Counted from the stretch's first letter, positions 1,647 to 61,263 are shown. The stretch is 64,000 nucleotides of DNA from Patescibacteria group bacterium (GCA_041666205.1 JBAYHI010000005.1:20386-84385); one strand, 5' to 3'. Notes: generated by a model from the letters alone, not told the origin. Made by a program: numbers and translations.

Positions 1647-3548
1647 TTACGATATATCTTCCTCCCACGTCCCATTCGCATCAATACGACTTCTGAAAAA
1701 CTTTTCTGTTTCTTTATTCACAAAGTACACATAACAACCTTTCATCCCCCGCGTCAATAAGATTCGATAGGTGTTTTTCAACAGCTCGACAAATTGATCT
1801 TTTGATCTCCGAACAACCGTATCAAATGAATGTTCTGGTCGTGCAATCCAATTTTGCTTCTCAAAATCGTAAACCAAATCTTCACCGATAATGACACCAA
1901 CATAATCAAACTCAAATCCCTGAGCCGTATACACGCAACCAATTTGATTTACGCCTTGCGGATCGTGTGCCCATAATGATGCTTTTGGAATTCCGGCCAC
2001 CAATCTTCTTGAATCTGTCTTTGCATTCCACGGACGTTGATAATCTCCGATAACGACATCGTCGACTAACGCGCCCTCATTCGTCGCACTAGACCAAGGC
2101 CAGCAAAACCCTGCTGTCAAACGTGCCGTGTTTCCATGTTCAGCTTTTTCTTTTATGGCTTGTTCCAGAGCCTCCGGCGTGTCGAAAATTTTAAATTCAA
2201 AACCGTCATTTTGGTCCCAAATAGGATTTGCCGTACGTTTGATTCCCAACGTGTTATTGACCCAATTGATAAAGGCGTCCGAGCCATTGCATCGAAATTG
2301 CGCCTCAAGTTCATACTCTAAAACCTCACGGCCTTTTTCTTTTGCGTATTCACGAATGTAGGAAACCGACCCGATCTCATTTGGTCGCACGATTTGATTG
2401 TCGTCGATGAAAAATACGGCAAGTTTCGATGCATCTAATAATTCTTCAATTTGGAGTTTGTTTGAGGTTTTATCTTTCCGTGTAAATCGATTATTGCTCG
2501 TTTTTCGTATTCGATGTGCTTCATCACAAATTAGCACATCAATGTCGCCGGGACCGGCCGAAGCATAACTATTGAAATATTTGAATTGTACCGAGCCACG
2601 CGTTCCAATAATTTTTCTTAGTGTCTCGGTAAATGCTTTTGACCCCGTGGCGTAATGTGCATTTTTCCCCTCAGCTAATAGATCTGCCATTAAATTTAGT
2701 GCAATAACAGATTTCCCCGTGCCAGGACCACCGCGAACAATTAATATTTTACGTCCGTCGCTCGTATCAAGTCCTCGACGTGCTAACGCCATCACCTTAT
2801 CAAAAACGATACGCTGTTCATCGAGCAAAACATATTCTGATTTTCCTTTGATAACTGAAGAGATGTGATCGAGTAATTTCCGACTTGGTTTATATTTCCC
2901 ATTATCAATTTTACTCATGACCGATTCCCCGTTTCCGCGCTCCAAACCCTGCAATAAATATGCACAAAGTTCATCTACTTTTTCTGCTGTAAAAACTGGG
3001 TATTTATCGACGAGGTTGGAGAATTTTGGTGAGAACAACTCATCATTGCTCACCGGATTATAGTTGTGCAAATAACTACACGCTTCCAGACGTACCGGCT
3101 GTGGTCCTTCATAAAAAGTCGTGTGCGTATCTGCAAGATATTCTTTGTACCCGCCAACTTGCGCTGAAGGATGAAGAACCTCGCGCTTCGCACCACCTAC
3201 CCACGTTAAGACTTCATTTTCTCCGTCGGCTTGTTCGGTTTTCTCCCACTGCTTGAGCTCGATGATCATTGCCGTATCTTGAGCGTTTGTATCGACTCCG
3301 CAGATAATGCAATCAAGACGTTTTGACGTTAAAGGCAATTGATATTCCAAAAGGATACCGTGATCAATAAGATCTGCATGCTGAAAAACTTGAGACAATG
3401 CGCGCAACGAATTTCTCCAAGATGTAACCTCAGCTGGCGAAGGATAATAACGAAAATGTGAAAAAAATGCATCGCGAAGAAGATCAGCAATGCGATTTTG
3501 AATATTATCGAGGATAAATTCTTTCGAGGTACCTGAATAGAGTCGCAT
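1647..3548 (-). CDS. DUF2075-type protein: N-terminal PD-(D/E)xK nuclease-like domain fused to SF1 helicase-like P-loop ATPase (Schlafen/Nhi-like architecture)
   Basis: N-terminus has D...ELK nuclease motif (RLDCIICGVD...IIELKQW). Walker A GGPGTGKS, Walker B/DEAH box LICDEAHRI. C-terminal LLTRGMKGCYVYF motif typical of the DUF2075/UvrD_C_2-like tail. 633 aa. Confidence 0.7.
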   Translation of the reverse strand: MRLYSGTSKEFILDNIQNRIADLLRDAFFSHFRYYPSPAEVTSWRNSLRALSQVFQHADLIDHGILLEYQLPLTSKRLDCIICGVDTNAQDTAMIIELKQWEKTEQADGENEVLTWVGGAKREVLHPSAQVGGYKEYLADTHTTFYEGPQPVRLEACSYLHNYNPVSNDELFSPKFSNLVDKYPVFTAEKVDELCAYLLQGLERGNGESVMSKIDNGKYKPSRKLLDHISSVIKGKSEYVLLDEQRIVFDKVMALARRGLDTSDGRKILIVRGGPGTGKSVIALNLMADLLAEGKNAHYATGSKAFTETLRKIIGTRGSVQFKYFNSYASAGPGDIDVLICDEAHRIRKTSNNRFTRKDKTSNKLQIEELLDASKLAVFFIDDNQIVRPNEIGSVSYIREYAKEKGREVLEYELEAQFRCNGSDAFINWVNNTLGIKRTANPIWDQNDGFEFKIFDTPEALEQAIKEKAEHGNTARLTAGFCWPWSSATNEGALVDDVVIGDYQRPWNAKTDSRRLVAGIPKASLWAHDPQGVNQIGCVYTAQGFEFDYVGVIIGEDLVYDFEKQNWIARPEHSFDTVVRRSKDQFVELLKNTYRILLTRGMKGCYVYFVNKETEKFFRSRIDANGTWEEDIS

Positions 3549-3550
3549 AA

Positions 3551-3898
3551 CTAGAGTTTATTGTATTTCGTGTGTTTCCCTTTTGCTTTTTCGATCGGGT
3601 ATTTTTCTTCGTTTTTTTTCAATTTTTTCTCTACCGCTTTCAGAAGATCAATTTTCAAATCATGGCTCATTAATAAAACCCAATACAAAACATCCGCGAG
3701 CTCATCTGCGATATGTTCTTTATCGCTTTTCACATAATCCTCAATTTCTTTTGGATTTTTCCATTGGAAATGTTCCATCACTTCTCCCGCCTCCAAAACC
3801 AAAGAAATCGACAAATCTTTTGGGTTATGAAATTGCCTCCAGTCTCTTGCATCTCGAAATGCAATGATCTTTTTTGTGATCTTTTTTATGTCATCCAT
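3551..3898 (-). CDS. MazG-like nucleotide pyrophosphohydrolase (small all-alpha NTP-PPase)
   Basis: 115 aa; EAGEVMEHFQW (E-x-x-E metal site) and ELADVLYWVLLMSHDL motifs typical of MazG/HisE-superfamily NTP pyrophosphatases. Stop is 2 nt from the DUF2075 start. Confidence 0.7.
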   Translation of the reverse strand: MDDIKKITKKIIAFRDARDWRQFHNPKDLSISLVLEAGEVMEHFQWKNPKEIEDYVKSDKEHIADELADVLYWVLLMSHDLKIDLLKAVEKKLKKNEEKYPIEKAKGKHTKYNKL

Positions 3899-3992
3899 AC
3901 CGTCCCATTCTCCCCCCTTTTCCCTCTTTCTTCAATCCCTCCCCAAAATCAAAAATCCCCCGCCGGGGCGAGGGGAAAAAAACCAGAGGAAT

Positions 3993-4007
3993 ATGCAAAT
4001 TTTGCAT
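3993..4007. promoter_or_regulatory. perfect 15-bp palindrome atgcaaattttgcat with flanking TTGCATTTT direct repeats, ~95 nt upstream of the MazG operon start; candidate operator
   Basis: Seen directly in sequence; tgcaaa/tttgca arms; ttgcatttt recurs at 4002-4010 and 4023-4031. Confidence 0.3.
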
Positions 4008-4096
4008 TTTGCTTTCCACTTGCATTTTCAGATGTCCGATTTTTTCGTACACCTGACTCCCCCAAACATTTTTACCCTTTTCCCTCTTGTTCAAAG

Positions 4097-4110
4097 GGGT
4101 CGAATTCGAC
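4097..4110. promoter_or_regulatory. perfect 14-bp palindrome ggtcgaattcgacc in the MazG-operon/RAYT intergenic region
   Basis: Seen directly in sequence. Confidence 0.25.
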
Positions 4111-4139
4111 CAGTTTGAGGCGAGAGGGATTATTCAGTG

Positions 4140-4156
4140 CGTGACAATTTGTCACG
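4140..4156. promoter_or_regulatory. perfect 17-bp palindrome cgtgacaatttgtcacg (8-bp arms) 30 nt downstream of the RAYT stop; candidate operator or transposase-end hairpin
   Basis: Seen directly in sequence. Confidence 0.3.
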
Positions 4157-4186
4157 GTTTCATTTTTAGACCGGGTCGAGGAAAAA

Positions 4187-4753
4187 TTATTCCACAAACA
4201 ATTCATCTTCTTCCCATTTTCGTGGGTTCTCCATAATATAGGTGCGGATATTGCTGAGGGATTTCTCATCACGAACAATGTGTTCATAATAATTCCGTTG
4301 CCAAACCGCGCCACCGGTATTCCCTCGAATAACATTCGCGCGTTTTGTGACCGCGGATTTGAATCCGGCAACAAACGATCCAATCGATTGCGATTTGGGA
4401 CCAGATCGATGTCCTGTAGGGGCGACCGGCCGGTCGCCCCTACGAAAACAAATATCGTCCGTACGAAAAACATCATTTCCACGGTTGATAACCGTAATCA
4501 CATGGATATGATTTGGCATAATCACCAAAGAATCCAATTCGATTTCGGATCGAATTTCGAGGGTCTTCAATAATTCATCATGAACAATATTCCCAAATTG
4601 ATTTAGACGAATAATTCCATGTTCAATTGCACCAAACAAACATTCACGATCCTTTGTGCAAATCGTGAGAAAATATGCGCCATCCTCAGAATAATCGTAT
4701 CCTTGCAGACGAATGGAACGACGGTGCAATCGTGGAAATTTATTAATCGGCAT
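4187..4753 (-). CDS. IS200/IS605-like Y1 (HUH) transposase, REP-associated tyrosine transposase (RAYT)-like
   Basis: HUH motif in VIMPNHIHVITV; C-terminal AVWQRNYYEHIVRDEKSLSNIRTYIMENPRKW with catalytic-Tyr context typical of this family; 188 aa. A REP-like GTAG palindrome is embedded in-frame (see repeat 4416-4443). Confidence 0.7.
   Translation of the reverse strand: MPINKFPRLHRRSIRLQGYDYSEDGAYFLTICTKDRECLFGAIEHGIIRLNQFGNIVHDELLKTLEIRSEIELDSLVIMPNHIHVITVINRGNDVFRTDDICFRRGDRPVAPTGHRSGPKSQSIGSFVAGFKSAVTKRANVIRGNTGGAVWQRNYYEHIVRDEKSLSNIRTYIMENPRKWEEDELFVE
4416..4443. repeat. REP-like palindrome gtaggggcgaccggccggtcgcccctac (GTAG-ended) lying inside the RAYT coding sequence
   Basis: Perfect 28-bp inverted repeat; same GTAGGGGC...GCCCCTAC design as hairpins at 5649, 5699, 5983 and 53537. 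Confidence 0.6.
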
Positions 4754-4772
4754 TTGGCAAAGGATCTATTCC

Positions 4773-5126
4773 TTACTCGTAAATCGGCGGGGACCAAGCC
4801 AACCAGATTATAAGATCTGTAATCAATAGCAATCCAACCAACGCCAGATCCCAAAATCCCACCCATTTTTTCTCTGCAATCTCTGGAAAGAATTTTCCAA
4901 AATAGATGTAGTACAAAATCCGTCGAATGAGTTGCGCGCCAAGAAGGACGCCAACGATTCTTGGAATAGCCGTGAGTGGATAATATCCCCAAAAAATAAA
5001 TCCAACGTCACGCCACGTGAATAAAAGAATAAAAACCGTGGGAACCAAAATGCACACAAAGTAAAGCACGCGCAAAAGGCGATACCATACGATTTCTTTT
5101 GCACGTAAAAGTGTTTTTGTTTGCAT
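4773..5126 (-). CDS. hypothetical small membrane protein (3 predicted TM segments)
   Basis: Hydrophobic stretches ILVPTVFILLF / VGVLLGAQLI / LALVGLLLITDLIIWLAW; no identifiable motif; chosen over overlapping alternative frames. Confidence 0.4.
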   Translation of the reverse strand: MQTKTLLRAKEIVWYRLLRVLYFVCILVPTVFILLFTWRDVGFIFWGYYPLTAIPRIVGVLLGAQLIRRILYYIYFGKFFPEIAEKKWVGFWDLALVGLLLITDLIIWLAWSPPIYE

Positions 5127-5589: not shown

Positions 5590-5648
5590 ATGAAGACAGA
5601 TTAGCATGGATTTTGGGATAAATCCATGGATTCTGTCTTATAGAATTT

Positions 5649-5668
5649 ACAGGGGCCTGTCAGCCCCT
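5649..5668. repeat. REP-like hairpin acaggggcctgtcagcccct
   Basis: Inverted repeat aggggc/gcccct; member of the GGGGC...GCCCC hairpin family. Confidence 0.5.
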
Positions 5669-5698
5669 TTTCTTGTTATCTCCACTTTCTTTGGATTC

Positions 5699-5717
5699 GT
5701 AGGGGCATCCTGCCCCT
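5699..5717. repeat. REP-like hairpin GTAGGGGCATCCTGCCCCT (5' GTAG)
   Basis: Inverted repeat with GTAG tetranucleotide as in canonical REP/RAYT substrates. Confidence 0.5.
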
Positions 5718-5727
5718 TGAACCCTGG

Positions 5728-5973
5728 CCCCTCTTTTCTTTGCTGGACCCAAAGAAAAGAGGGGGGAAAAGAAAGGGTCTGTTTTCTTGTAGCCCATCCC
5801 AGCCTTCGCGCTTGGCTGGCCCGGAAAAACGTATGAAGAACCAAACCACCCAGGGCAGGAACGTTTTTCCGGTCGGGCAGTGTTCTGATTGCACCGCCGC
5901 CTCGAGGTTGGTAAAGAGGAATCCGGCAAGTTTCTTTCTCTCCACTTTCTTTGCCGGAACAAAGAAAGTGGAG
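5728..5973. repeat. composite repeat element copy 1: hairpin cccctcttttctttg...caaagaaaagagggg, 87-bp core (5792-5878) identical to 53622-53708, shared aaagaggaatccggc box, terminal hairpin ctccactttctttgccggaacaaagaaagtggag
   Basis: Direct comparison with 53562-53975: core 87/87 identical; flanking hairpins conserved in design; copy 2 carries an extra ~170-bp insert. Confidence 0.65.
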
Positions 5974-5982
5974 AAAATAGGT

Positions 5983-6002
5983 TAGGGGCTGGAAGCCCCT
6001 AC
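5983..6002. repeat. REP-like hairpin taggggctggaagcccctac (GTAG on minus strand)
   Basis: Inverted repeat aggggc/gcccct ending in ...ctac. Confidence 0.5.
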
Positions 6003-6030
6003 AAAAAAGAACAGTCTTTCGACTGTTCTT
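6003..6030 (-). terminator. intrinsic terminator downstream of rpsU (hairpin aagaacagtc-gaaag-actgttctt + T-run on minus strand)
   Basis: Perfect 9-bp stem followed by tttttgt on the minus strand. Confidence 0.5.
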
Positions 6031-6038
6031 TTCTTGTT

Positions 6039-6290
6039 TTAGTTCTGTTGTTTCTTGCGGAAATCTTCTTCTTTAAGCTTTCCGGTACGGATCAAGTATT
6101 CACGCTTCTCGCCCATTTCCAATCGACGCAATGCGTTTTTGCGACGCTTATTGCGATTTGGGGTGCGGGTGAAGAATCGTCCTGCGCGAACATCGAGCGT
6201 TTTACCGCTCTGTTGCACGCGACGGGTAAAGCGACGGAACATCGCTTCAAAACTCTCGCCCTTTTTTCGTTTGATTTCAATGTCTGACAT
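6039..6290 (-). CDS. rpsU: 30S ribosomal protein bS21
   Basis: MSDIEIKRKKGESFEAMFRRFTRRVQQSG...NKRRKNALRRL; typical S21 length and basic C-terminus. Confidence 0.85.
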   Translation of the reverse strand: MSDIEIKRKKGESFEAMFRRFTRRVQQSGKTLDVRAGRFFTRTPNRNKRRKNALRRLEMGEKREYLIRTGKLKEEDFRKKQQN

Positions 6291-8960: not shown

Positions 8961-10484
8961 ATGGAAAAAATAACGATCGACCTGCATTCCAAATTTTTCC
9001 AACTTTTTTCCTTGTGCGGATTATCTCTCGCCCTTGGATTCCTTTTTGACTACCTCATCTACGATCATGCATTTGGCATTAATGTGCCAATTTTTATTTT
9101 TATTGCAATCACATTCGGGATCCTGCTCGCGCTCAGTTATCGTGTAGCGATTCCAAAACTTGCATACCTGTTTTTTGCGATCGGCCTAGGATTTGCGTTT
9201 CTCCTGTTTTTCCGAGCCAATGCACTTCTCTCATTTTGCAATTTCTGCGCCATGGGATTTTTCCTATTGCTTGGTGTTATTCAACTCACGGAAAAATTCA
9301 TTCATAAATTCCTTGCATTTGATTATTGGAAAACGCTCGCCCTCCCCCTGTTCTTTGTGCCTCCATTTTTAAAAACACTCCAAGATCTCATCACAATTCG
9401 ACATTCCGATACAAAACGCGATACAGCCATCCAAATCATTCGCGGAACAATTGTCGCCCTTGTAATCGTTGCAGTCCTTCTGGCGCTCTTTGCATCAGCG
9501 GATTTGGTGGTGCAGGACTTTTTCACACGCCTATTTTCAAACGAATTAGATGCAGAGCAAATCGCGGAATTTCTGGTGCGCACCTTCTTCGTCACCTTTA
9601 TTGCTGGAGCATTTCTTGGCCTCTATGCGTACGCCTTCCGTCATCCACGCGTGCATGCACCCACGAGTGACGCCACACCTGTGAAGTTCATTAAATCCAT
9701 TGAACTTGGGATTATTCTTATTGCCACGAACCTCATCTTCATTACGTTCCTCACCATTCAAGCCACAAACTTATTTGGCGGACACAATGCGCTCGATCGA
9801 CTAGGAATCACGTATGCAGAATATGCGCAACGCGGATTCTTTGAACTGATCGTGGCCGCACTCTTGGTGGCGCTCGTCTTGTGGATTGCCGATAAATATT
9901 CTGCGAAAAATACCGTGAACGAAAAAACGTCATTTCTCTTTTTGAGCAGCCTACTCCTCGTGCAAACAATTGTGCTCATGGCCTCGGCGTTCTATCGACT
10001 CGCCCTGTACGAAGGCGCCTACGGCTACACCACGCTCCGACTCTTCAGTCACGCGTTTATTATTTGGATTGCGCTTGCGCTCGTGTATTTCCTCGTGAAA
10101 ATTTGGTTCGCAAAAAAAGAAGAGCATTTCGCGCTTGCCACATTTGGAACCGGCGTCGTGCTTTTGCTTGCGCTCAACGCGCTCAATCCTGATGCCTTTA
10201 TGGCAACGCAGCATTTGCAACGCGCCGCTGGCACCGAAACATTTGATGCACCATTTTTATCACAACTCTCTGCCGATGCTGTTCCGGTGCTTTACGAGGC
10301 GATGCGGGCAAATACCGACGCGCGATTACCCGAGGTACTAGCCGATTGGAAAGGAGAGCGCTTTGATTATTCTGGAGAAAAAGGACCAGCGACGCTTCGC
10401 AGTCAGTACGTTGGTTGGCAGGCGTATCATTTTGCACGAACCCATGCGCTCGACGTGCTTGCGGACGTGAACGTCCAAAGATAA
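8961..10484 (+). CDS. polytopic membrane protein, DUF4173-like, function unknown
   Basis: 507 aa with ~12 hydrophobic segments; no catalytic motif recognised. Confidence 0.55.
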   Translation: MEKITIDLHSKFFQLFSLCGLSLALGFLFDYLIYDHAFGINVPIFIFIAITFGILLALSYRVAIPKLAYLFFAIGLGFAFLLFFRANALLSFCNFCAMGFFLLLGVIQLTEKFIHKFLAFDYWKTLALPLFFVPPFLKTLQDLITIRHSDTKRDTAIQIIRGTIVALVIVAVLLALFASADLVVQDFFTRLFSNELDAEQIAEFLVRTFFVTFIAGAFLGLYAYAFRHPRVHAPTSDATPVKFIKSIELGIILIATNLIFITFLTIQATNLFGGHNALDRLGITYAEYAQRGFFELIVAALLVALVLWIADKYSAKNTVNEKTSFLFLSSLLLVQTIVLMASAFYRLALYEGAYGYTTLRLFSHAFIIWIALALVYFLVKIWFAKKEEHFALATFGTGVVLLLALNALNPDAFMATQHLQRAAGTETFDAPFLSQLSADAVPVLYEAMRANTDARLPEVLADWKGERFDYSGEKGPATLRSQYVGWQAYHFARTHALDVLADVNVQR

Positions 10485-10487
10485 TTC

Positions 10488-11978
10488 GTGTATAATAACG
10501 TTGGTATGAAAGAGGAAGTCTCGGTTGATTTTTTGAAGAAAAAATATCAACTGGCCCCGGATCGTCAAAAAGAACAGAAGCGCAAAAAAACCTTCAAATG
10601 GATTGCGGGATTTTTCGTATTTGCGGCGCTTGCGGGGATTGGCGCCTCGTATAGTATTTCTGCAACTAGTAATACAACAAACGATCTTTCCGGACTCTCG
10701 ATTTTTTCAACGGTTCGCGGGCTCATGACCGCGCAAGATAAAGCGCTCTCCGGGGAAACAAGCGATCGCATTAATGTGCTCCTCATGGGCATTGGCGGCG
10801 CAGGGCACGACGGGCCAGAGCTCACCGACACGCTGATCTTTGCCAGCTTCCAACCCTCAACAGGTGAAATTGGCATGCTGTCGATTCCGCGCGATTTAGT
10901 GGTTTCGATTCCGGAGTACGGCTATCGCAAAATCAATGCAGCCAATGCATACGGCGAACTCAATGAGGCCGGCAGTGGTCCACAAGTGGCATCCGATATT
11001 GTGAGCGACATCCTTGGGCAAGAAATCAATTATTACGTGAAAGTAGATTTTGATGCATTTGCAGAACTCATCGATGCCGTTGGCGGCGTTGACGTCTACG
11101 TGGAACGCAGTTTCACTGACTCGACCTACCCCACCGAAGATGATTTGGTTCAAACCATTTCTTTCTCGCAAGGATGGGCCCATATGGACGGCGCCACGGC
11201 ATTGCAATTTGCGCGTTCGCGCCACGGCAATAATGGCGAAGGTACGGATTTCGCGCGCGCGGAGCGTCAGCAAAAAATCATTGTAGCCATGGAAAAACAA
11301 ATCCTCTCCCCTTCCATTCTCTTGAATCCTGGCAAACTTTCAAAGCTCGTAAATCTTTTTCAAGCAAACGTCACCACCAATTTGACCGTATGGGAAATCA
11401 TGCGCCTGTCGGGATATGCGAGCAATATTCAAATGGATAAGATTCGCATGACCGTTCTCGACGACAGTGCAGAGAGTCCACTGTATTCCTCCACCATCAA
11501 CGGGTCGTATGTGCTTTTGCCAAAACAAGACGATTGGGGCGAGGTGCAGGCCATTGCGCAAAATATTTTCGACCCATCACGCATTGCAGCCGAAGCAGAA
11601 ACAGCAACCACCATGGACCCCGTGAGTATCGAAATCCAAAACGGCACGGCGCTTTCCGGACTTGCATTCGAAACGTCCCAGCGATTGGCTGGCACTGGGT
11701 TTGATGTGGTAAAAATTGGCAATGCTGCATCGCGGGATTATTCCAAAACGATTATTTACGATCTGACGCAAGGCACCCATTCCGCCGCGCTTGCGGAATT
11801 GCAACAATTTTTCGGAGCCGATGTAAAGATGTCGGCATCGGGTTGGATTTTTTCTAGTGAAGTTGTGCCACGAGAGCTTACCGTGGCAACGCCGGGAGAA
11901 TCCATTTCCACAAGCGATACGCAAATTGATTTCTTAGTGATTCTTGGCGCGAATGCGGAAAATTTAGTCTTAAAATAA
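10488..11978 (+). CDS. LytR-CpsA-Psr (LCP) family cell-envelope phosphotransferase with C-terminal LytR_C domain
   Basis: N-terminal TM anchor; LCP core INVLLMGIGGAGHDGPELTDTLIFASF...LSIPRDL...YYVKVDFDAFAELIDAVGGVDVYV. Confidence 0.8.
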   Translation: MYNNVGMKEEVSVDFLKKKYQLAPDRQKEQKRKKTFKWIAGFFVFAALAGIGASYSISATSNTTNDLSGLSIFSTVRGLMTAQDKALSGETSDRINVLLMGIGGAGHDGPELTDTLIFASFQPSTGEIGMLSIPRDLVVSIPEYGYRKINAANAYGELNEAGSGPQVASDIVSDILGQEINYYVKVDFDAFAELIDAVGGVDVYVERSFTDSTYPTEDDLVQTISFSQGWAHMDGATALQFARSRHGNNGEGTDFARAERQQKIIVAMEKQILSPSILLNPGKLSKLVNLFQANVTTNLTVWEIMRLSGYASNIQMDKIRMTVLDDSAESPLYSSTINGSYVLLPKQDDWGEVQAIAQNIFDPSRIAAEAETATTMDPVSIEIQNGTALSGLAFETSQRLAGTGFDVVKIGNAASRDYSKTIIYDLTQGTHSAALAELQQFFGADVKMSASGWIFSSEVVPRELTVATPGESISTSDTQIDFLVILGANAENLVLK

Positions 11979-18632: not shown

Positions 18633-20162
18633 TTGATTTTTCCGATTTGGCGGGGTACGCTCATACGTATGACCATCGCTCCACGCGTTCATACGGATTT
18701 TTCGATCCTCCAGAGCAAACTGAAACCTGAACGTTATACCCAAGACGAAATCAGTCTTATTGAGCGTGCCTATAAATTTGCGGAAAAAGCCCATGAGGGC
18801 CAAATGCGAAATACCGGAAATACCTACTTCTCGCATGTCTTTGCAACTGCCATCACGTTGGCGGAAATGCAGCTTCCCCACGAAGTCATTATTGCCGGAC
18901 TCTTGCACGACGTCATTGAAGACGCCAATGTGCCAGCAGAAACCCTTGCCGCGGAATTCGGGGAAGACGTTGCCGACATGGTGAGCGCAGTCACAAAGCT
19001 CGGGCACCTCAAATATCGCGGACTCGATCGCTACGTGGAAAATCTGCGTAAAATGTTTATTTCCATGGCAAAAGACGTGCGCGTAATTTTCATTAAATTC
19101 GCCGACCGTCTGCACAATATGGAAACGCTCTATGTGGTCCCTGAGCATAAGCGCAAACGCATTGCCAAAGAAGTGATGGAAATTTACGCGCCCATTGCCA
19201 ATCGGTTGGGCATGGGTGAATTTCGCGGGCAATTTGAAGATTATAGCTTCAAATATTTGGAGCCAAAAGAATATAATTGGACCAAACATTTGCTCGAACA
19301 ACGCGTAAAGAAATTCGGACCTTCCATGAATAAGGCCATGAAAGATGTGGAGGCAGAACTCTTGGTGCATAAAATTACGCCCGTCAATATTCACGGACGA
19401 ATTAAATATTGCTATAGCCTCTACAATAAGCTTCAAAAATACGGAAACGATATCTCCAAAGTCTACGATATCGTGGCACTCCGCATTATTGTCGATGATG
19501 TTTCGGATTGTTATGCAGCCCTCGGGGTTTTGCACAGTCTCTATCGCCCACTCCCCGGACGCATCAAAGACTACATTGCTCAACCAAAACCCAATGGCTA
19601 TAAATCGCTTCACACCTGCGTCTTCTCTGACGACGGCGCGATTTTGGAGTTTCAAATTCGTACGCAAGAAATGCATGAAGAAGCCGAATACGGTATTGCC
19701 GCGCATTGGCGCTATAAAGAAACCGGAAATAGCGAACGTGAACGTCGCGTAAAGTGGATGGAAGAATTAGCCGAGATTCAAAAAGAGTTGAAGCAAACGG
19801 ATTTCATGCAACGCCTCGATGAAATGAAACTCGACATGTTTCAAGACCGCATTTTCGTGTTCACGCCAAATGGCGATGTGTTTGATCTTCCAAGCGGGTC
19901 CACACCGATTGATTTTGCATACATGATCCACACCGACATCGGCGATAAGGCCGTGAGCGCAAAAATCAATCACGAAATCGCAAACCTGAATTCCGAATTG
20001 CGATCTGGGGATATGTGCGAAATCACAACCGATCCACACCGCAAAGGACCAAATGCGGATTGGCTGAAATTTGTAAAAACCCAACATGCGCGCGAAAAAA
20101 TTCGCGATGCAGTAAAACGCAATAAAACCTCCCTCATGAGCCGACTCATGAAGCGCGGCTAA
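18633..20162 (+). CDS. rel: bifunctional (p)ppGpp synthetase/hydrolase of RelA/SpoT family, short form (HD + synthetase + TGS, no ACT domain)
   Basis: HD domain HEGQMRNTGNTYFSHV...LLHDVIED; synthetase RIKYCYSLYNKLQKYG...DIVALRIIV; TGS IFVFTPNGDVFDLPSGSTPIDFAY. Ends after TGS at 509 aa. Confidence 0.8.
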   Translation: MIFPIWRGTLIRMTIAPRVHTDFSILQSKLKPERYTQDEISLIERAYKFAEKAHEGQMRNTGNTYFSHVFATAITLAEMQLPHEVIIAGLLHDVIEDANVPAETLAAEFGEDVADMVSAVTKLGHLKYRGLDRYVENLRKMFISMAKDVRVIFIKFADRLHNMETLYVVPEHKRKRIAKEVMEIYAPIANRLGMGEFRGQFEDYSFKYLEPKEYNWTKHLLEQRVKKFGPSMNKAMKDVEAELLVHKITPVNIHGRIKYCYSLYNKLQKYGNDISKVYDIVALRIIVDDVSDCYAALGVLHSLYRPLPGRIKDYIAQPKPNGYKSLHTCVFSDDGAILEFQIRTQEMHEEAEYGIAAHWRYKETGNSERERRVKWMEELAEIQKELKQTDFMQRLDEMKLDMFQDRIFVFTPNGDVFDLPSGSTPIDFAYMIHTDIGDKAVSAKINHEIANLNSELRSGDMCEITTDPHRKGPNADWLKFVKTQHAREKIRDAVKRNKTSLMSRLMKRG

Positions 20163-29723: not shown

Positions 29724-29756
29724 CCCCCGGCCACGCCGTGGGGGTCGCTTCTTTTT
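29724..29756 (+). terminator. intrinsic terminator module T1: cccccggccacgccgtggggg hairpin + tcgcttcttttta
   Basis: GC stem then T-run; near-identical copy at 30057-30090. Confidence 0.5.
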
Positions 29757-29762
29757 ATACGG

Positions 29763-29791
29763 TTGACAAGACGCCTGCGGAACCGCAAAAT
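29763..29791 (+). promoter_or_regulatory. promoter TTGACA-N17-CAAAAT for small protein gene 2 (duplicated module)
   Basis: -35 29763-29768; GGAGG at 29813-29817, 5 nt before ATG 29823; the same TTGACAAGACG.C.GC.GAACCGCAAAAT box recurs at 30097-30125. Confidence 0.45.
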
Positions 29792-30056: not shown

Positions 30057-30090
30057 TCCCCCCGGCCACGCCGTGGGGGTCGCTTCATAT
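30057..30090 (+). terminator. terminator module T2 (ccccccggccacgccgtggggg + tcgcttcatatttgg), paralogue of T1
   Basis: Same hairpin as 29724-29745 with one extra C; weaker T-run. Confidence 0.4.
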
Positions 30091-30096
30091 TTGGCG

Positions 30097-30125
30097 ATTG
30101 ACAAGACGTCCGCAGAACCGCAAAA
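30097..30125 (+). promoter_or_regulatory. promoter TTGACA-N17-CAAAAT for small protein gene 3
   Basis: -35 30097-30102; GGAGG at 30136-30140, 5 nt before ATG 30146. Confidence 0.45.
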
Positions 30126-30145
30126 TGAGCGAACTGGAGGTTTCC

Positions 30146-53477: not shown

Positions 53478-53536
53478 AAAATTTTATTATTGGCTGGAAT
53501 ACTAGCAGATTTTATTTGGTTCGTCAAAAATTGTTT

Positions 53537-53556
53537 ACAGGGCTTTCAGCCCCTGT
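53537..53556. repeat. REP-like hairpin acagggctttcagcccctgt
   Basis: Same GGGGC...GCCCC design as the 5649/5699/5983 hairpins. Confidence 0.45.
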
Positions 53557-53561
53557 GTTGT

Positions 53562-53975
53562 CCTCCACTTTTCTTTGCTGGCCCAAAGAAAAGTGGAGAG
53601 AAAAGAAATGGCCTGCTTACGGCCCATCCCAGCCTTCGCGCTTGGCTGGCCCGGAAAAACGTATGAAGAACCAAACCACCCAGGGCAGGAACGTTTTTCC
53701 GGTCGGGCCTTGTTCGATAGCCTGTTTTTATTTGAATCGCCGGCTCGAGCATTGTCAAAGAGGAATCCGGCGTTCGGACAGGAATTGCACGGCCACCTCC
53801 GGCACATCCAAAGTTGTACGGGCATGGCGCGCCATGCCCGTACGCGGGATCCATTGCCGGAGACTGGCCGTGCCCTGGCCGACGACGGATAAGACAACAT
53901 GCCTCTTTGACAAGCGCAGACCCGGCAGCCAGTTTCTTTCCCTCCACTTTCTTTGCTGGTCCAAAGAAAGTGGAG
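53562..53975. repeat. composite repeat element copy 2 (hairpin - 87-bp core 53622-53708 - aaagaggaatccggc - ~170-bp insert incl. 28-bp perfect palindrome 53816-53843 - hairpin ctccactttctttgctggtccaaagaaagtggag)
   Basis: 87/87 identity of core with 5792-5878; terminal hairpins conserved; insert unique to this copy. Confidence 0.65.
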
Positions 53976-53985
53976 ATAACAGGAA

Positions 53986-54843
53986 TCAAAACTCAAAACT
54001 CGCTACCTCGATTTTCTTCCCGTCTGACAAAAGCCGAATATCTCCCAACTGATCGGTACGCAAAATCTCTGCGCCAACCGACTGCAGACGGTCCACAATC
54101 GTCGGGCTTGGATGCCCGTAGTCATTCTCCCCAACCGAAATAACTGCGTACTCGGGTTTCACCATTTCCAAAAACGTGCTCGACGATGAACTAAGACTCC
54201 CATGATGCCCGACTTTGAGCACATCAACGTCAACGAGACCTGATGTCATTTGCGCTTCTTCTTCAATCCCCGCGTCGCCTGTAAAAAGAACCTCGACATC
54301 TCCGTCTTTCAGCAACAGCACAAGCGAACTGTCATTTTCGTCGTCCACATTTTCTACAAAATCCAACAATGGCCACAAAATACAAAGCGATCGATTCTCA
54401 CCCAACTCCAAACAATCTGGTGCGGACGCAATTTCATCATTCGTTTTCCCCATAAACTCTTTTCCAAGTTCCGTGCTGTACGTCGCATTCGGTCGCCAAA
54501 CTTCCCCAAACGAATACCGATCTGCCACCGCATTTAGTCCAACCAAATGATCGGCATGATCGTGTGAGGAAATCATATACTCAATATTGCGATCCCAAAA
54601 CGGCATCACAGCGGAAAGTTTCTCAATCACCTGCTGACTGGGCCCGCCGTCGATCAGAATTTGTGTAGATCCACTTTGAATGAGCGCAGAGTCTCCCTGC
54701 CCCACATCGAAAAACCACACGGCTAATTTTTCATCGCTAAAAATCGTCGGCGACGCAATCGATTGCACCGCCACGGTCACCAAACAAAACGCAACAAGAC
54801 CTACAAATGAGAAAAAAGCTTTTTTCGTTTTACGATAAGCCAT
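53986..54843 (-). CDS. ComEC/Rec2-type metallo-beta-lactamase domain protein (C-terminal module of ComEC encoded separately)
   Basis: MBL motifs ISSHDHADH, GDAG, HHGS; start set at MAYRKTKKAFF (TM anchor); overlaps upstream ComEC membrane ORF by 43 nt in another frame. Confidence 0.65.
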   Translation of the reverse strand: MAYRKTKKAFFSFVGLVAFCLVTVAVQSIASPTIFSDEKLAVWFFDVGQGDSALIQSGSTQILIDGGPSQQVIEKLSAVMPFWDRNIEYMISSHDHADHLVGLNAVADRYSFGEVWRPNATYSTELGKEFMGKTNDEIASAPDCLELGENRSLCILWPLLDFVENVDDENDSSLVLLLKDGDVEVLFTGDAGIEEEAQMTSGLVDVDVLKVGHHGSLSSSSSTFLEMVKPEYAVISVGENDYGHPSPTIVDRLQSVGAEILRTDQLGDIRLLSDGKKIEVASFEF

Positions 54844-61078: not shown

Positions 61079-61156
61079 CGTCATCCTGACCCCGCTGAGC
61101 GGGGGAAAGATCCCAAGAACCCATCGAGAGATTCTTCGCTAACGCTCAGAATGACG
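61079..61156. promoter_or_regulatory. 78-bp element with 11-bp terminal inverted repeats (cgtcatcctga ... tcagaatgacg) enclosing hairpin ccccgctgagcgggg, upstream of the PP2C gene
   Basis: Seen directly in sequence; one mismatch between arms. Confidence 0.3.
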
Positions 61157-61190
61157 AAAGGAGAGAAGGAGGATGCAACGTCCACAACGA

Positions 61191-61230
61191 AAAAAGACGA
61201 AGCAATCCACACGAGTAGATTGCTTCGTCG
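61191..61230 (-). terminator. intrinsic terminator after rhodanese-like gene (12-bp perfect stem gacgaagcaatc/gattgcttcgtc + T6 on minus strand)
   Basis: Seen directly. Confidence 0.55.
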
Positions 61231-61263
61231 GCAAATTACCTCCTCGCAATGACAGAACAAAAA

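Follow-up and report, generated by a model that had tools for sequence, protein, structure and literature searches.

Modular nested-palindrome repeats in intergenic regions of a Patescibacteria genome: probable REP/BIME- and MITE-like DNA elements

Results

The repeat between yqeY and rpsU and its second copy

We analysed a 64,000-nt stretch of DNA (hereafter the window) from a Patescibacteria group bacterium (GCA_041666205.1 JBAYHI010000005.1:20386-84385), in which the spacer between the genes yqeY and rpsU carries a hairpin-rich repeat. An earlier note on the window had named both genes, and they indeed encode YqeY (Pfam PF09424, E = 2.5e-40) and ribosomal protein S21. It had also placed three GGGGC...GCCCC hairpins in the spacer. 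These were found at 5652-5667, 5702-5716 and 5985-5999, the latter two with a GTAG tag, which precedes the hairpin in the first case (5698-5701) and lies on the minus strand in the second (6002-5999). The only other GGGGC hairpin of the window, the fourth in total, lies at 4419-4440 within a transposase gene described below. Between the GGGGC hairpins, the 246-bp unit of the earlier note was recovered with its two bounding hairpins, L (15/15 pairs) and R (94% complementarity); coordinates are given in Table 1. The motif CTCCACTTTCTTTG occurred 20 times against 7.2 expected, a number that none of 100 shuffles reached and that is not due to chance.

Inside this unit, a core of 87 nt is 100% identical to a second stretch in the window, and identity is 98% over 94 nt. 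The core contains the two stem-loops described before, CCAGCC/GGCTGG and CCGGAAAAACGT/ACGTTTTTCCGG, and a third stem of 4 bp (GCCC/GGGC) that closes both of them and makes the structure a three-way junction. The perfect identity of the core was thus confirmed, whereas its flanks are less diverged than had been stated: homology extends over approximately 5644-5981 and 53534-53983, interrupted by indels.

Manual alignment together with MAFFT revealed the same order of modules in both stretches, copy 1 (~5650-6002) and copy 2 (53534-53983). The element measures ~280-450 bp and is modular. Module A is a 'head', a GGGGC hairpin resembling a repetitive extragenic palindrome (REP; GTAGGGGCATCCTGCCCCT), followed by hairpin L; module B is a purine-rich linker followed by the core; module C is a stretch with a terminal CTCGAGCATTGTCAAAGAGGAATCCGGC; module D, which is optional, is a long imperfect hairpin of ~120-190 nt; and module E is hairpin R followed by ATAACA. 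Both copies are predicted to fold more stably than shuffled sequence, the z-scores being -4.3 (copy 1) and -10.9 (copy 2). Copy 1 has an additional outer shell, consisting of a REP and an inverted right-end piece on the left and an inverted GTAG REP on the right. The inverted GTAG REP is restricted to this copy, and an inverted right-end piece also lies upstream of the L008 copy introduced below. The left piece (5665-5693) and 5960-5988 form a 29-nt terminal inverted repeat of 79%; in the remaining copies, resemblance between the two ends is confined to the arms of hairpins L and R.

Copy census and genomic contexts

Eight copies were found in total. Seven come from a single genome population, and the eighth (L011; 74% identical) is divergent and derives from another metagenome. 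A metagenome scan with a 21-mer of the core returned two Joint Genome Institute (JGI) contigs, L008 and L009. When the modules served as queries in local BLAST and nhmmer searches, two more copies emerged: a second, 5'-truncated copy on L009 (L009b, beside L009a) and copy 0, a 3'-truncated copy on the window's own contig, 3 kb past the left edge of the window (L001:19436-19230). Two further loci were reached through the opposite-strand frame of a spurious open reading frame (ORF) across the element, with which three ORFs of a representative protein library matched: L010, a 5'-truncated copy on a second contig (252 kb) of the European Nucleotide Archive (ENA) assembly ERZ27249449, and the full-length copy L011. 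L008 is 99.986% identical to L017, on a third contig (250 kb) of ERZ27249449, and is the same locus. Because of this identity, and because three contigs of 250-288 kb in ERZ27249449 carry copies, all copies except L011 can be assigned to one population. The sequence read from the organism and its relatives amounted to ~210 kb, and the copy number is at least seven; five of these at least seven same-population copies contain the core. The 9.7 kb beyond the right edge of the window held no further copy.

No two of the eight copies share an intergenic context. Copy 1 is flanked by rpsU and yqeY, copy 2 by ndk and a Lactamase_B/ComEC gene, copy 0 by a gene island and a type IV secretion system (T4SS)-pilin gene, L008 (= L017) by typA and a DEAD-box helicase gene, and L009a by the prepilin peptidase gene (pilD) and ligA; further contexts include a RimK-like and a DsbA-like gene, and a peptidase M23 gene and a hypothetical gene. 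Relative to neighbouring genes, copies 1 and 2 are antisense, L009a is sense and L008 is convergent. With both full and truncated copies and non-coding sequence throughout, these data bear out the earlier description of a dispersed repeat resembling a MITE (miniature inverted-repeat transposable element) or a REP/BIME cluster. The opposite possibility raised there, that only two copies exist and arose by segmental duplication, fails: there are eight copies, and segmental duplication is excluded by flanks that differ at every copy.

Outside this population, a 20-mer of the core gave one chance match among the GTDB species genomes, in an Anaerolineales metagenome-assembled genome (MAG) with no similarity past the 20-mer, so that the species is either absent there or differs within the 20-mer. 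Scans of IMG/VR gave chance matches or none, and plasmid and phage collections gave no match. In NCBI, an identical YqeY protein carries the name 'Patescibacteria group bacterium', and the next-closest relatives according to YqeY are Patescibacteria and Ca. Uhrbacteria.

Gene calling and assembly are both affected by the copies. Spurious ORFs are called across copies, one of 178 aa (window 53516-54052, plus strand) and one of 161 aa (L008:8203-8688, minus strand), which form public singleton clusters; as a protein query, the 178-aa ORF matched itself alone. On L009, the upstream prepilin peptidase ORF (9718-10539, minus strand) is terminated by the element itself: its stop codon is the TAG within the head sequence TAGGGGC (9718-9720). 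Furthermore, Logan contigs of SRR6484324 with identical rpsU and ndk (L002 end 1904, L004 start 1) stop no more than ~100 nt from these genes, at the element edges; the repeat breaks short-read assemblies.

Stems, loops and strand symmetry

Across six copies, 43 hand-defined base pairs were paired in 98.4% of the cells, and seven pairs were altered on both sides. None of 500 shuffles matched these values, and slid controls yielded zero or one double-changed pair. For hairpin 1 of the core, L009a has TGGCC/GGCCA where most copies have CAGCC/GGCTG; in hairpin 2, one G-C pair has become A-T in copy 0; and the outer stem of module D covaries as GCCGG/CCGGC, GCCAG/CTGGC and GTCAG/CTGAC. A covariance model built from four copies, with L011 left out, found the L011 core at full length (E = 2.9e-8). 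The loop of hairpin 2 (28 nt) is 100% conserved within the window and is replaced by an unrelated 51 nt in L011. Pairing is nearly purely Watson-Crick, with one G·U pair in 258 cells, and fold stability is equal on both strands. If a DNA palindrome folds on each of its strands, such scarcity of G·U pairs is expected.

Coding capacity, RNA families and transcription signals

At the gathering threshold, an Rfam scan of the window passed four tRNAs only, and at E <= 10 both copies gave only sub-threshold chance hairpin matches. The Rfam comparison proposed in the earlier note therefore identified no family for either copy. No sigma-70-like promoter and no T-tailed terminator were found inside the element on either strand. 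Hairpins L and R were considered as intrinsic terminators and rejected for lack of a T-tail. A coding element was rejected as well: ORFs across it have no Pfam match, and several frames are open, as palindromic sequence would give.

Variants, nesting and mosaic identity

Variants of the element have been passed on as complete units. The junction that lacks module D is common to copy 1 and L009a, and L010 and L011 carry one and the same REP insertion in the D apex, where copy 2 has a different insert. Nesting of REP-type palindromes is seen in hairpin loops, with the two inserts of the D apex and another in the outer hairpin loop of copy 1, and even inside the RAYT-like ORF described below. The modules also occur independently of one another.

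Identity between copies changes from module to module. In comparison with copy 2, module A (head and hairpin L) is 88% identical in copy 0 and 72% in copy 1, L008 and L009a; the linker is 100% identical in copy 0, 82% in L008 and 77% in copy 1 and L009a; the core is 100% identical in copy 1, 99% in L008, 94% in copy 0 and 91% in L009a; and module C is 94% identical in L008 and L009a, 72% in copy 1 and 71% in copy 0. Hence, copy 2 is a mosaic: its head and 5' linker are like those of copy 0, its core is that of copy 1, and its module C resembles that of L008. Given this module-wise mosaic, the perfect identity of the core is best read as gene conversion or recombination among resident copies; it requires neither a very recent insertion nor unusually strong selection on the core. 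The earlier statement that perfect identity implies recent mobilisation is not supported in that form, since the mosaic fits gene conversion or recombination better than fresh insertion.

A RAYT-like gene and the class of the REPs

At 0.9 kb from copy 1 lies an ORF of 188 aa for a Y1 (HUH) transposase resembling the REP-associated tyrosine transposases (RAYTs). It matches PF01797 with 27.1 bits (cut-off 23), its best NCBIfam match is NF047646 'REP-associated tyrosine transposase' (REP_Tyr_transpos), and the motifs NHIHV and YYEH are readable in its translation. A perfect 28-nt GTAG palindrome (GTAGGGGCGACCGGCCGGTCGCCCCTAC) lies in frame between the HUH and Tyr motifs, and the ORF stays open. 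The element heads and this palindrome share one type, GTAGGGGC. Proximity and the shared hairpin type make this RAYT a candidate for the mobilising enzyme. The 'possibly RAYT-driven' of the earlier note has thus gained a RAYT-like Y1 gene in the vicinity, whereas the mobilisation itself is something that we infer.

With 17-20 nt, and 28 nt within the RAYT ORF, the GGGGC-N5-6-GCCCC hairpins are of REP size (20-40 bp). Besides the tags at copy 1, GTAG is found at 4416 and in L011. The arrangement is not that of a REPIN (REP doublet forming a hairpin): the sole inverted REP pair occurs at copy 1, where the arms are 266 nt apart, and the other copies have a single head REP.

Ends and insertion site

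The rpsU-yqeY spacer is 449 nt long here, versus 55 nt (with a terminator-like hairpin only) and 242 nt (with an unrelated palindrome) in relatives. Relatives whose YqeY is 61-62% identical had no modules in the 16-20 kb examined. The shorter, element-free spacers of relatives argue for an insertion at this site. The 242-nt spacer, in a Ca. Uhrbacteria MAG (L014:9759-10000), is occupied by an unrelated long inverted repeat (CTTGAATTACGAAACTCG...CGAGTTTCGTAATTCAAG); the rpsU-yqeY spacer attracts palindromic insertions in another lineage too.

Neighbouring island and other repeats

In relatives, T4SS-pilin/Big_5 genes directly follow yqeY. Here, ~8 kb intervenes (window 1647-5126 plus L001:11165-19063), containing genes for a membrane protein, the RAYT, MazG and a Schlafen-like helicase and ORFs of 349, 980 and 93 aa, with copy 0 at the far end. 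The loci used for comparison were L013:6255-8595, L014:10001-12581 and L012:640-9188. The relative with a 76% identical YqeY has a type I restriction-modification system together with PIN and SocA_Panacea genes at the same place. The stretch next to yqeY looks like a variable island hotspot, possibly related to defence.

Several other repeats were observed (Table 1). In L008, the inverted right-end fragment and the element head are separated by one inserted copy of a second palindromic family. A third repeat type, which forms a long inverted repeat CGTCATCCTGA...TCAGAATGACG in the window, has one copy adjoining the truncated end of copy 0. A further GTAG palindrome flanks copy 0 on both sides, with GTAGGGACGTTGCGTGCAACGTCC nearby; these additional palindromes imply that the genome contains several GTAG-type REP classes. 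Finally, a 68-nt direct repeat, unrelated to the element, begins with a CCCCCGGCCACGCCGTGGGGG hairpin and includes TTGACAAGACG.

Table 1. Coordinates of the repeat copies, of adjacent genes and of other repeats. Positions refer to the window unless a contig is named.
Feature	Position	Strand	Remarks
RAYT-like ORF	4187-4753	-	
GTAG palindrome in RAYT-like ORF	4416-4443		
yqeY	5143-5589/5607	-	
rpsU	6039-6290	-	
Copy 1, outer REP-like hairpin AGGGGC-CTGTCA-GCCCCT, ACAG tag	5651-5668	+	homologous to copy 2 head 53538-53556
Copy 1, inverted right-end piece TTCTTGTTATCTCCACTTTCTTTG	5665-5693	-	module E query 34-59 = 5695-5670, 100%
Copy 1, REP-like head GTAGGGGC-ATCCT-GCCCCT	5699-5717	+	near-identical in L008, L009a, L011
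Copy 1, hairpin L CCCCTCTTTTCTTTG / CAAAGAAAAGAGGGG, 15 bp	5728-5764	+	three pairs covary across copies
Copy 1, core	5792-5878	+	closing stem 5792-5795/5875-5878; hairpin 1 5799-5819; hairpin 2 5821-5872
Copy 1, module C, short form, terminal AAAGAGGAATCCGGC; without hairpin D	5879-5935	+	
Copy 1, hairpin R CTCCACTTTCTTTG-CCGGAA-CAAAGAAAGTGGAG plus right end	5936-5977	+	
Copy 1, inverted GTAG REP GTAGGGGCTTCCAGCCCCTAA	5983-6002	-	complementary to 5696-5717 at 86% (22-nt inverted repeat)
Copy 2, head ACAGGGC-TTTCA-GCCCCTGT	53538-53556	+	
Copy 2, hairpin L CTCCACTTTTCTTTG / CAAAGAAAAGTGGAG	53563-53598	+	subfamily II form, also in copy 0
Copy 2, core	53622-53708	+	100% to 5792-5878
Copy 2, module C	53709-53771	+	94% to L008 and L009a
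Copy 2, module D, long imperfect hairpin	53772-53926	+	pairs back into module C from ~53737
Copy 2, module D apex, nested 28-nt palindrome GTACGGGCATGGCGCGCCATGCCCGTAC	53816-53843	+	
Copy 2, module E: hairpin R plus ATAACAGG	53927-53983	+	hairpin R 53942-53975
Second palindromic family GATTGCTTCGTCGGCAA...CCTCCTCGCAATGAC	61214-61257; L008:8142-8181, 10722-10763; L010:3378-3429, 10750-10796		
Third repeat type, GTCATCCTGAGCG...GAAGGATCTC-like arms	61079-61157; L001:19194-19229; L010:747-777, 3332-3364		
GTAG palindrome CCCGTAGAGACGCGATTAATCGCGTCTCTACAAGA beside copy 0	L001:19450-19485, 19135-19168		
68-nt direct repeat	29724-29791 / 30059-30126		87% identical, 335 nt apart

Discussion

A family of non-autonomous DNA repeats

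The repeat between yqeY and rpsU belongs to a family whose members are modular, carry palindromes nested in palindromes, covary in their stems and include a mosaic of other members. We consider it probable that this is a new family of non-autonomous DNA repeats, similar to REPs and bacterial interspersed mosaic elements (BIMEs) as well as to MITEs, rather than a known RNA gene. Transposition of the element and the enzyme responsible for it are our inferences from the dispersal and the neighbourhood of the copies. In this explanation, the hairpins of the element would form in single-stranded DNA and would be recognised by a HUH Y1 transposase, for which the RAYT-like gene is the obvious candidate. 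Further REP hairpins may then land preferentially in hairpin loops. Segments would be swapped among resident copies by recombination or gene conversion, which could leave an identical core within otherwise diverged copies.

Several observations weigh against this explanation. The RAYT-like ORF scored 65.9 bits against NF047646, below the curated cut-off of 80. No inverted REP pair flanks the gene; the nearest external REPs start 0.9 kb off, past two genes. The tag is degenerate in most heads, reading ATAG in L008, L009a and copy 0 and ACAG at 5650 and in copy 2. No transposition event was observed. A clean empty site was not found in a close relative, and the contig of the relative with the 76% identical YqeY ends 186 nt upstream of yqeY. 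The element's ends are poorly delimited, and direct repeats next to the copies differ, with TAATGA in L008, TTGTG in L011, TCAAAA with an offset in copy 2 and none in L009a; the target-site duplications sought after the earlier note were, upon inspection by eye, inconsistent across copies. Y1 transposases make no target-site duplication. The stem statistics carry a caveat too, as the covariation comes from six related paralogues, and covariation in palindromes can arise without selection, via intrastrand template switching.

Alternative explanations

The hairpins might instead be signals selected by the host, such as stabilisers of transcript ends, terminators or sites for nucleoid proteins, that spread by recombination without a dedicated transposase. 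All copies are intergenic, several lie just past gene ends or terminators, and the mosaic demonstrates recombination between copies; moreover, such roles have been ascribed to REPs of other bacteria (PMC3733652). However, homologous recombination alone cannot seed unrelated intergenic sites, the hairpins lack T-tails, the orientation to neighbouring genes is inconsistent, and the truncated and nested copies resemble decay and insertion. Hence, we regard this explanation as unlikely. A classical MITE, moved by cut-and-paste through a DDE-type transposase with terminal inverted repeats and target-site duplications, would make the RAYT a bystander. It could account for the inverted repeat that brackets copy 1 (~42 nt if the outer REPs are counted), for the inverted right-end fragment upstream of L008 and for the direct repeats adjoining L008 and L011. 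Yet a terminal inverted repeat that goes past the likeness of hairpins L and R is missing from most copies, the supposed duplications vary in length and offset and are missing in L009a, the gene lists of the examined loci contain no DDE transposase, and heads made of REP-type hairpins are typical for Y1 systems, all of which renders such a mechanism very unlikely.

An RNA function was the other reading offered by the earlier note, in the form of a structured, multi-copy non-coding RNA (ncRNA) maintained by purifying selection. Either the core or the entire unit would then be an ncRNA gene, or RNA cargo of a mobile element, with a three-way junction selected as RNA. Part of this expectation agrees with the data: each of the three core helices, and hairpin L as well, shows compensatory changes, the covariance model recovers the full L011 core, folds are stabler than those of shuffled sequences, and subfamily II has an extra helix around hairpin L with G·U pairs possible on the plus strand only. 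Against it stand the lack of any Rfam match even at E <= 10, of a promoter-like site and of a U-tailed terminator on both strands of the element, the wholly replaced loop of hairpin 2 in L011, the single G·U among the paired cells and the equal folding of both strands. Two copies have no core and one has no 3' half, the modules occur independently, and the orientation to neighbouring genes varies. The promoter, terminator, loop and G·U results do not agree with an independent small RNA gene either. The covariation of the stems stands, and the ncRNA reading as such is disfavoured; we consider it distinctly unlikely. A related version, in which the core, alone or with hairpin D, is a functional RNA carried by a hairpin-bounded mobile element, either guide-like or regulatory in association with the HUH transposase or a new class of small RNA in Patescibacteria, seems to us highly unlikely.

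Implications

We thus retain a family of non-autonomous, REP/BIME- and MITE-like DNA repeats as the favoured explanation. The streamlined genomes of Patescibacteria are considered poor in repeat families, and our literature search found nothing tying REP- or MITE-like elements to this group. By itself the family opens no new mechanism. For genome annotation, such elements matter in that they create spurious ORFs and, in one case, the stop codon of a gene. For genome plasticity, they mark recombination-prone intergenic sites beside a variable island. Furthermore, they offer a model system for REP hairpins that enter the loops of other palindromes and for gene conversion among copies.

Comparison with known systems

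The BOX elements of pneumococci and the Correia elements of Neisseria resemble the family in being small, non-coding and intergenic, with modules in variable combinations and strong predicted folds; there is no relationship in sequence. Clear terminal inverted repeats and TA duplications set Correia elements apart, and to our knowledge BOX elements have no REP head. Miniature elements derived from the insertion sequences (ISs) IS200/IS605, also called palindrome-associated transposable elements, are alike in their similar subterminal hairpins of the same orientation (the loops of L and R both read CTGG... on one strand), in being non-coding without a consistent target duplication, and in the presence of a Y1 transposase in the genome. 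In contrast to those elements, no full-length parent IS was found here, cleavage and target motifs were not identifiable, and the transposase is of the RAYT type rather than the IS200 TnpA type.

The GTAG REP/BIME/REPIN systems with their RAYT (TnpA-REP) share with our family the short G+C-rich palindromes, in part with a 5' (G)TAG tag, the intergenic clusters in both orientations and a single RAYT-like HUH Y1 gene nearby. REPs have been described inside genes too (PMC3733652). In our family, however, the REP only heads a 280-450-bp unit in which a three-way core and non-REP hairpins follow, most copies carry a single REP instead of an inverted pair, the RAYT has no directly flanking REPs, and the tag is often ATAG or ACAG. 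According to PMC2817692, REP-type families often exceed 100 copies per genome, versus the at least seven copies seen here.

Composite repeats come closer still. Di Nocera et al. (2013; PMC3733652) described 'double palindromic' repeats of a degenerate GTAG REP and an unrelated stem-loop in Pseudomonas putida and P. fluorescens, and GTAG dimers within longer palindromes in Anabaena variabilis. Our element differs from these in its unrelated sequence, in its Patescibacteria host, and in being longer and built of more modules (core, C and D). It agrees with them in joining a REP and an unrelated stem-loop repeat into one unit and in placing REPs in the middle of larger palindromes, of which the module D apex and copy 1's outer hairpin are examples. 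The closest published precedents for the family are REPs fused to unrelated stem-loops and REPs within longer palindromes (PMC3733652).

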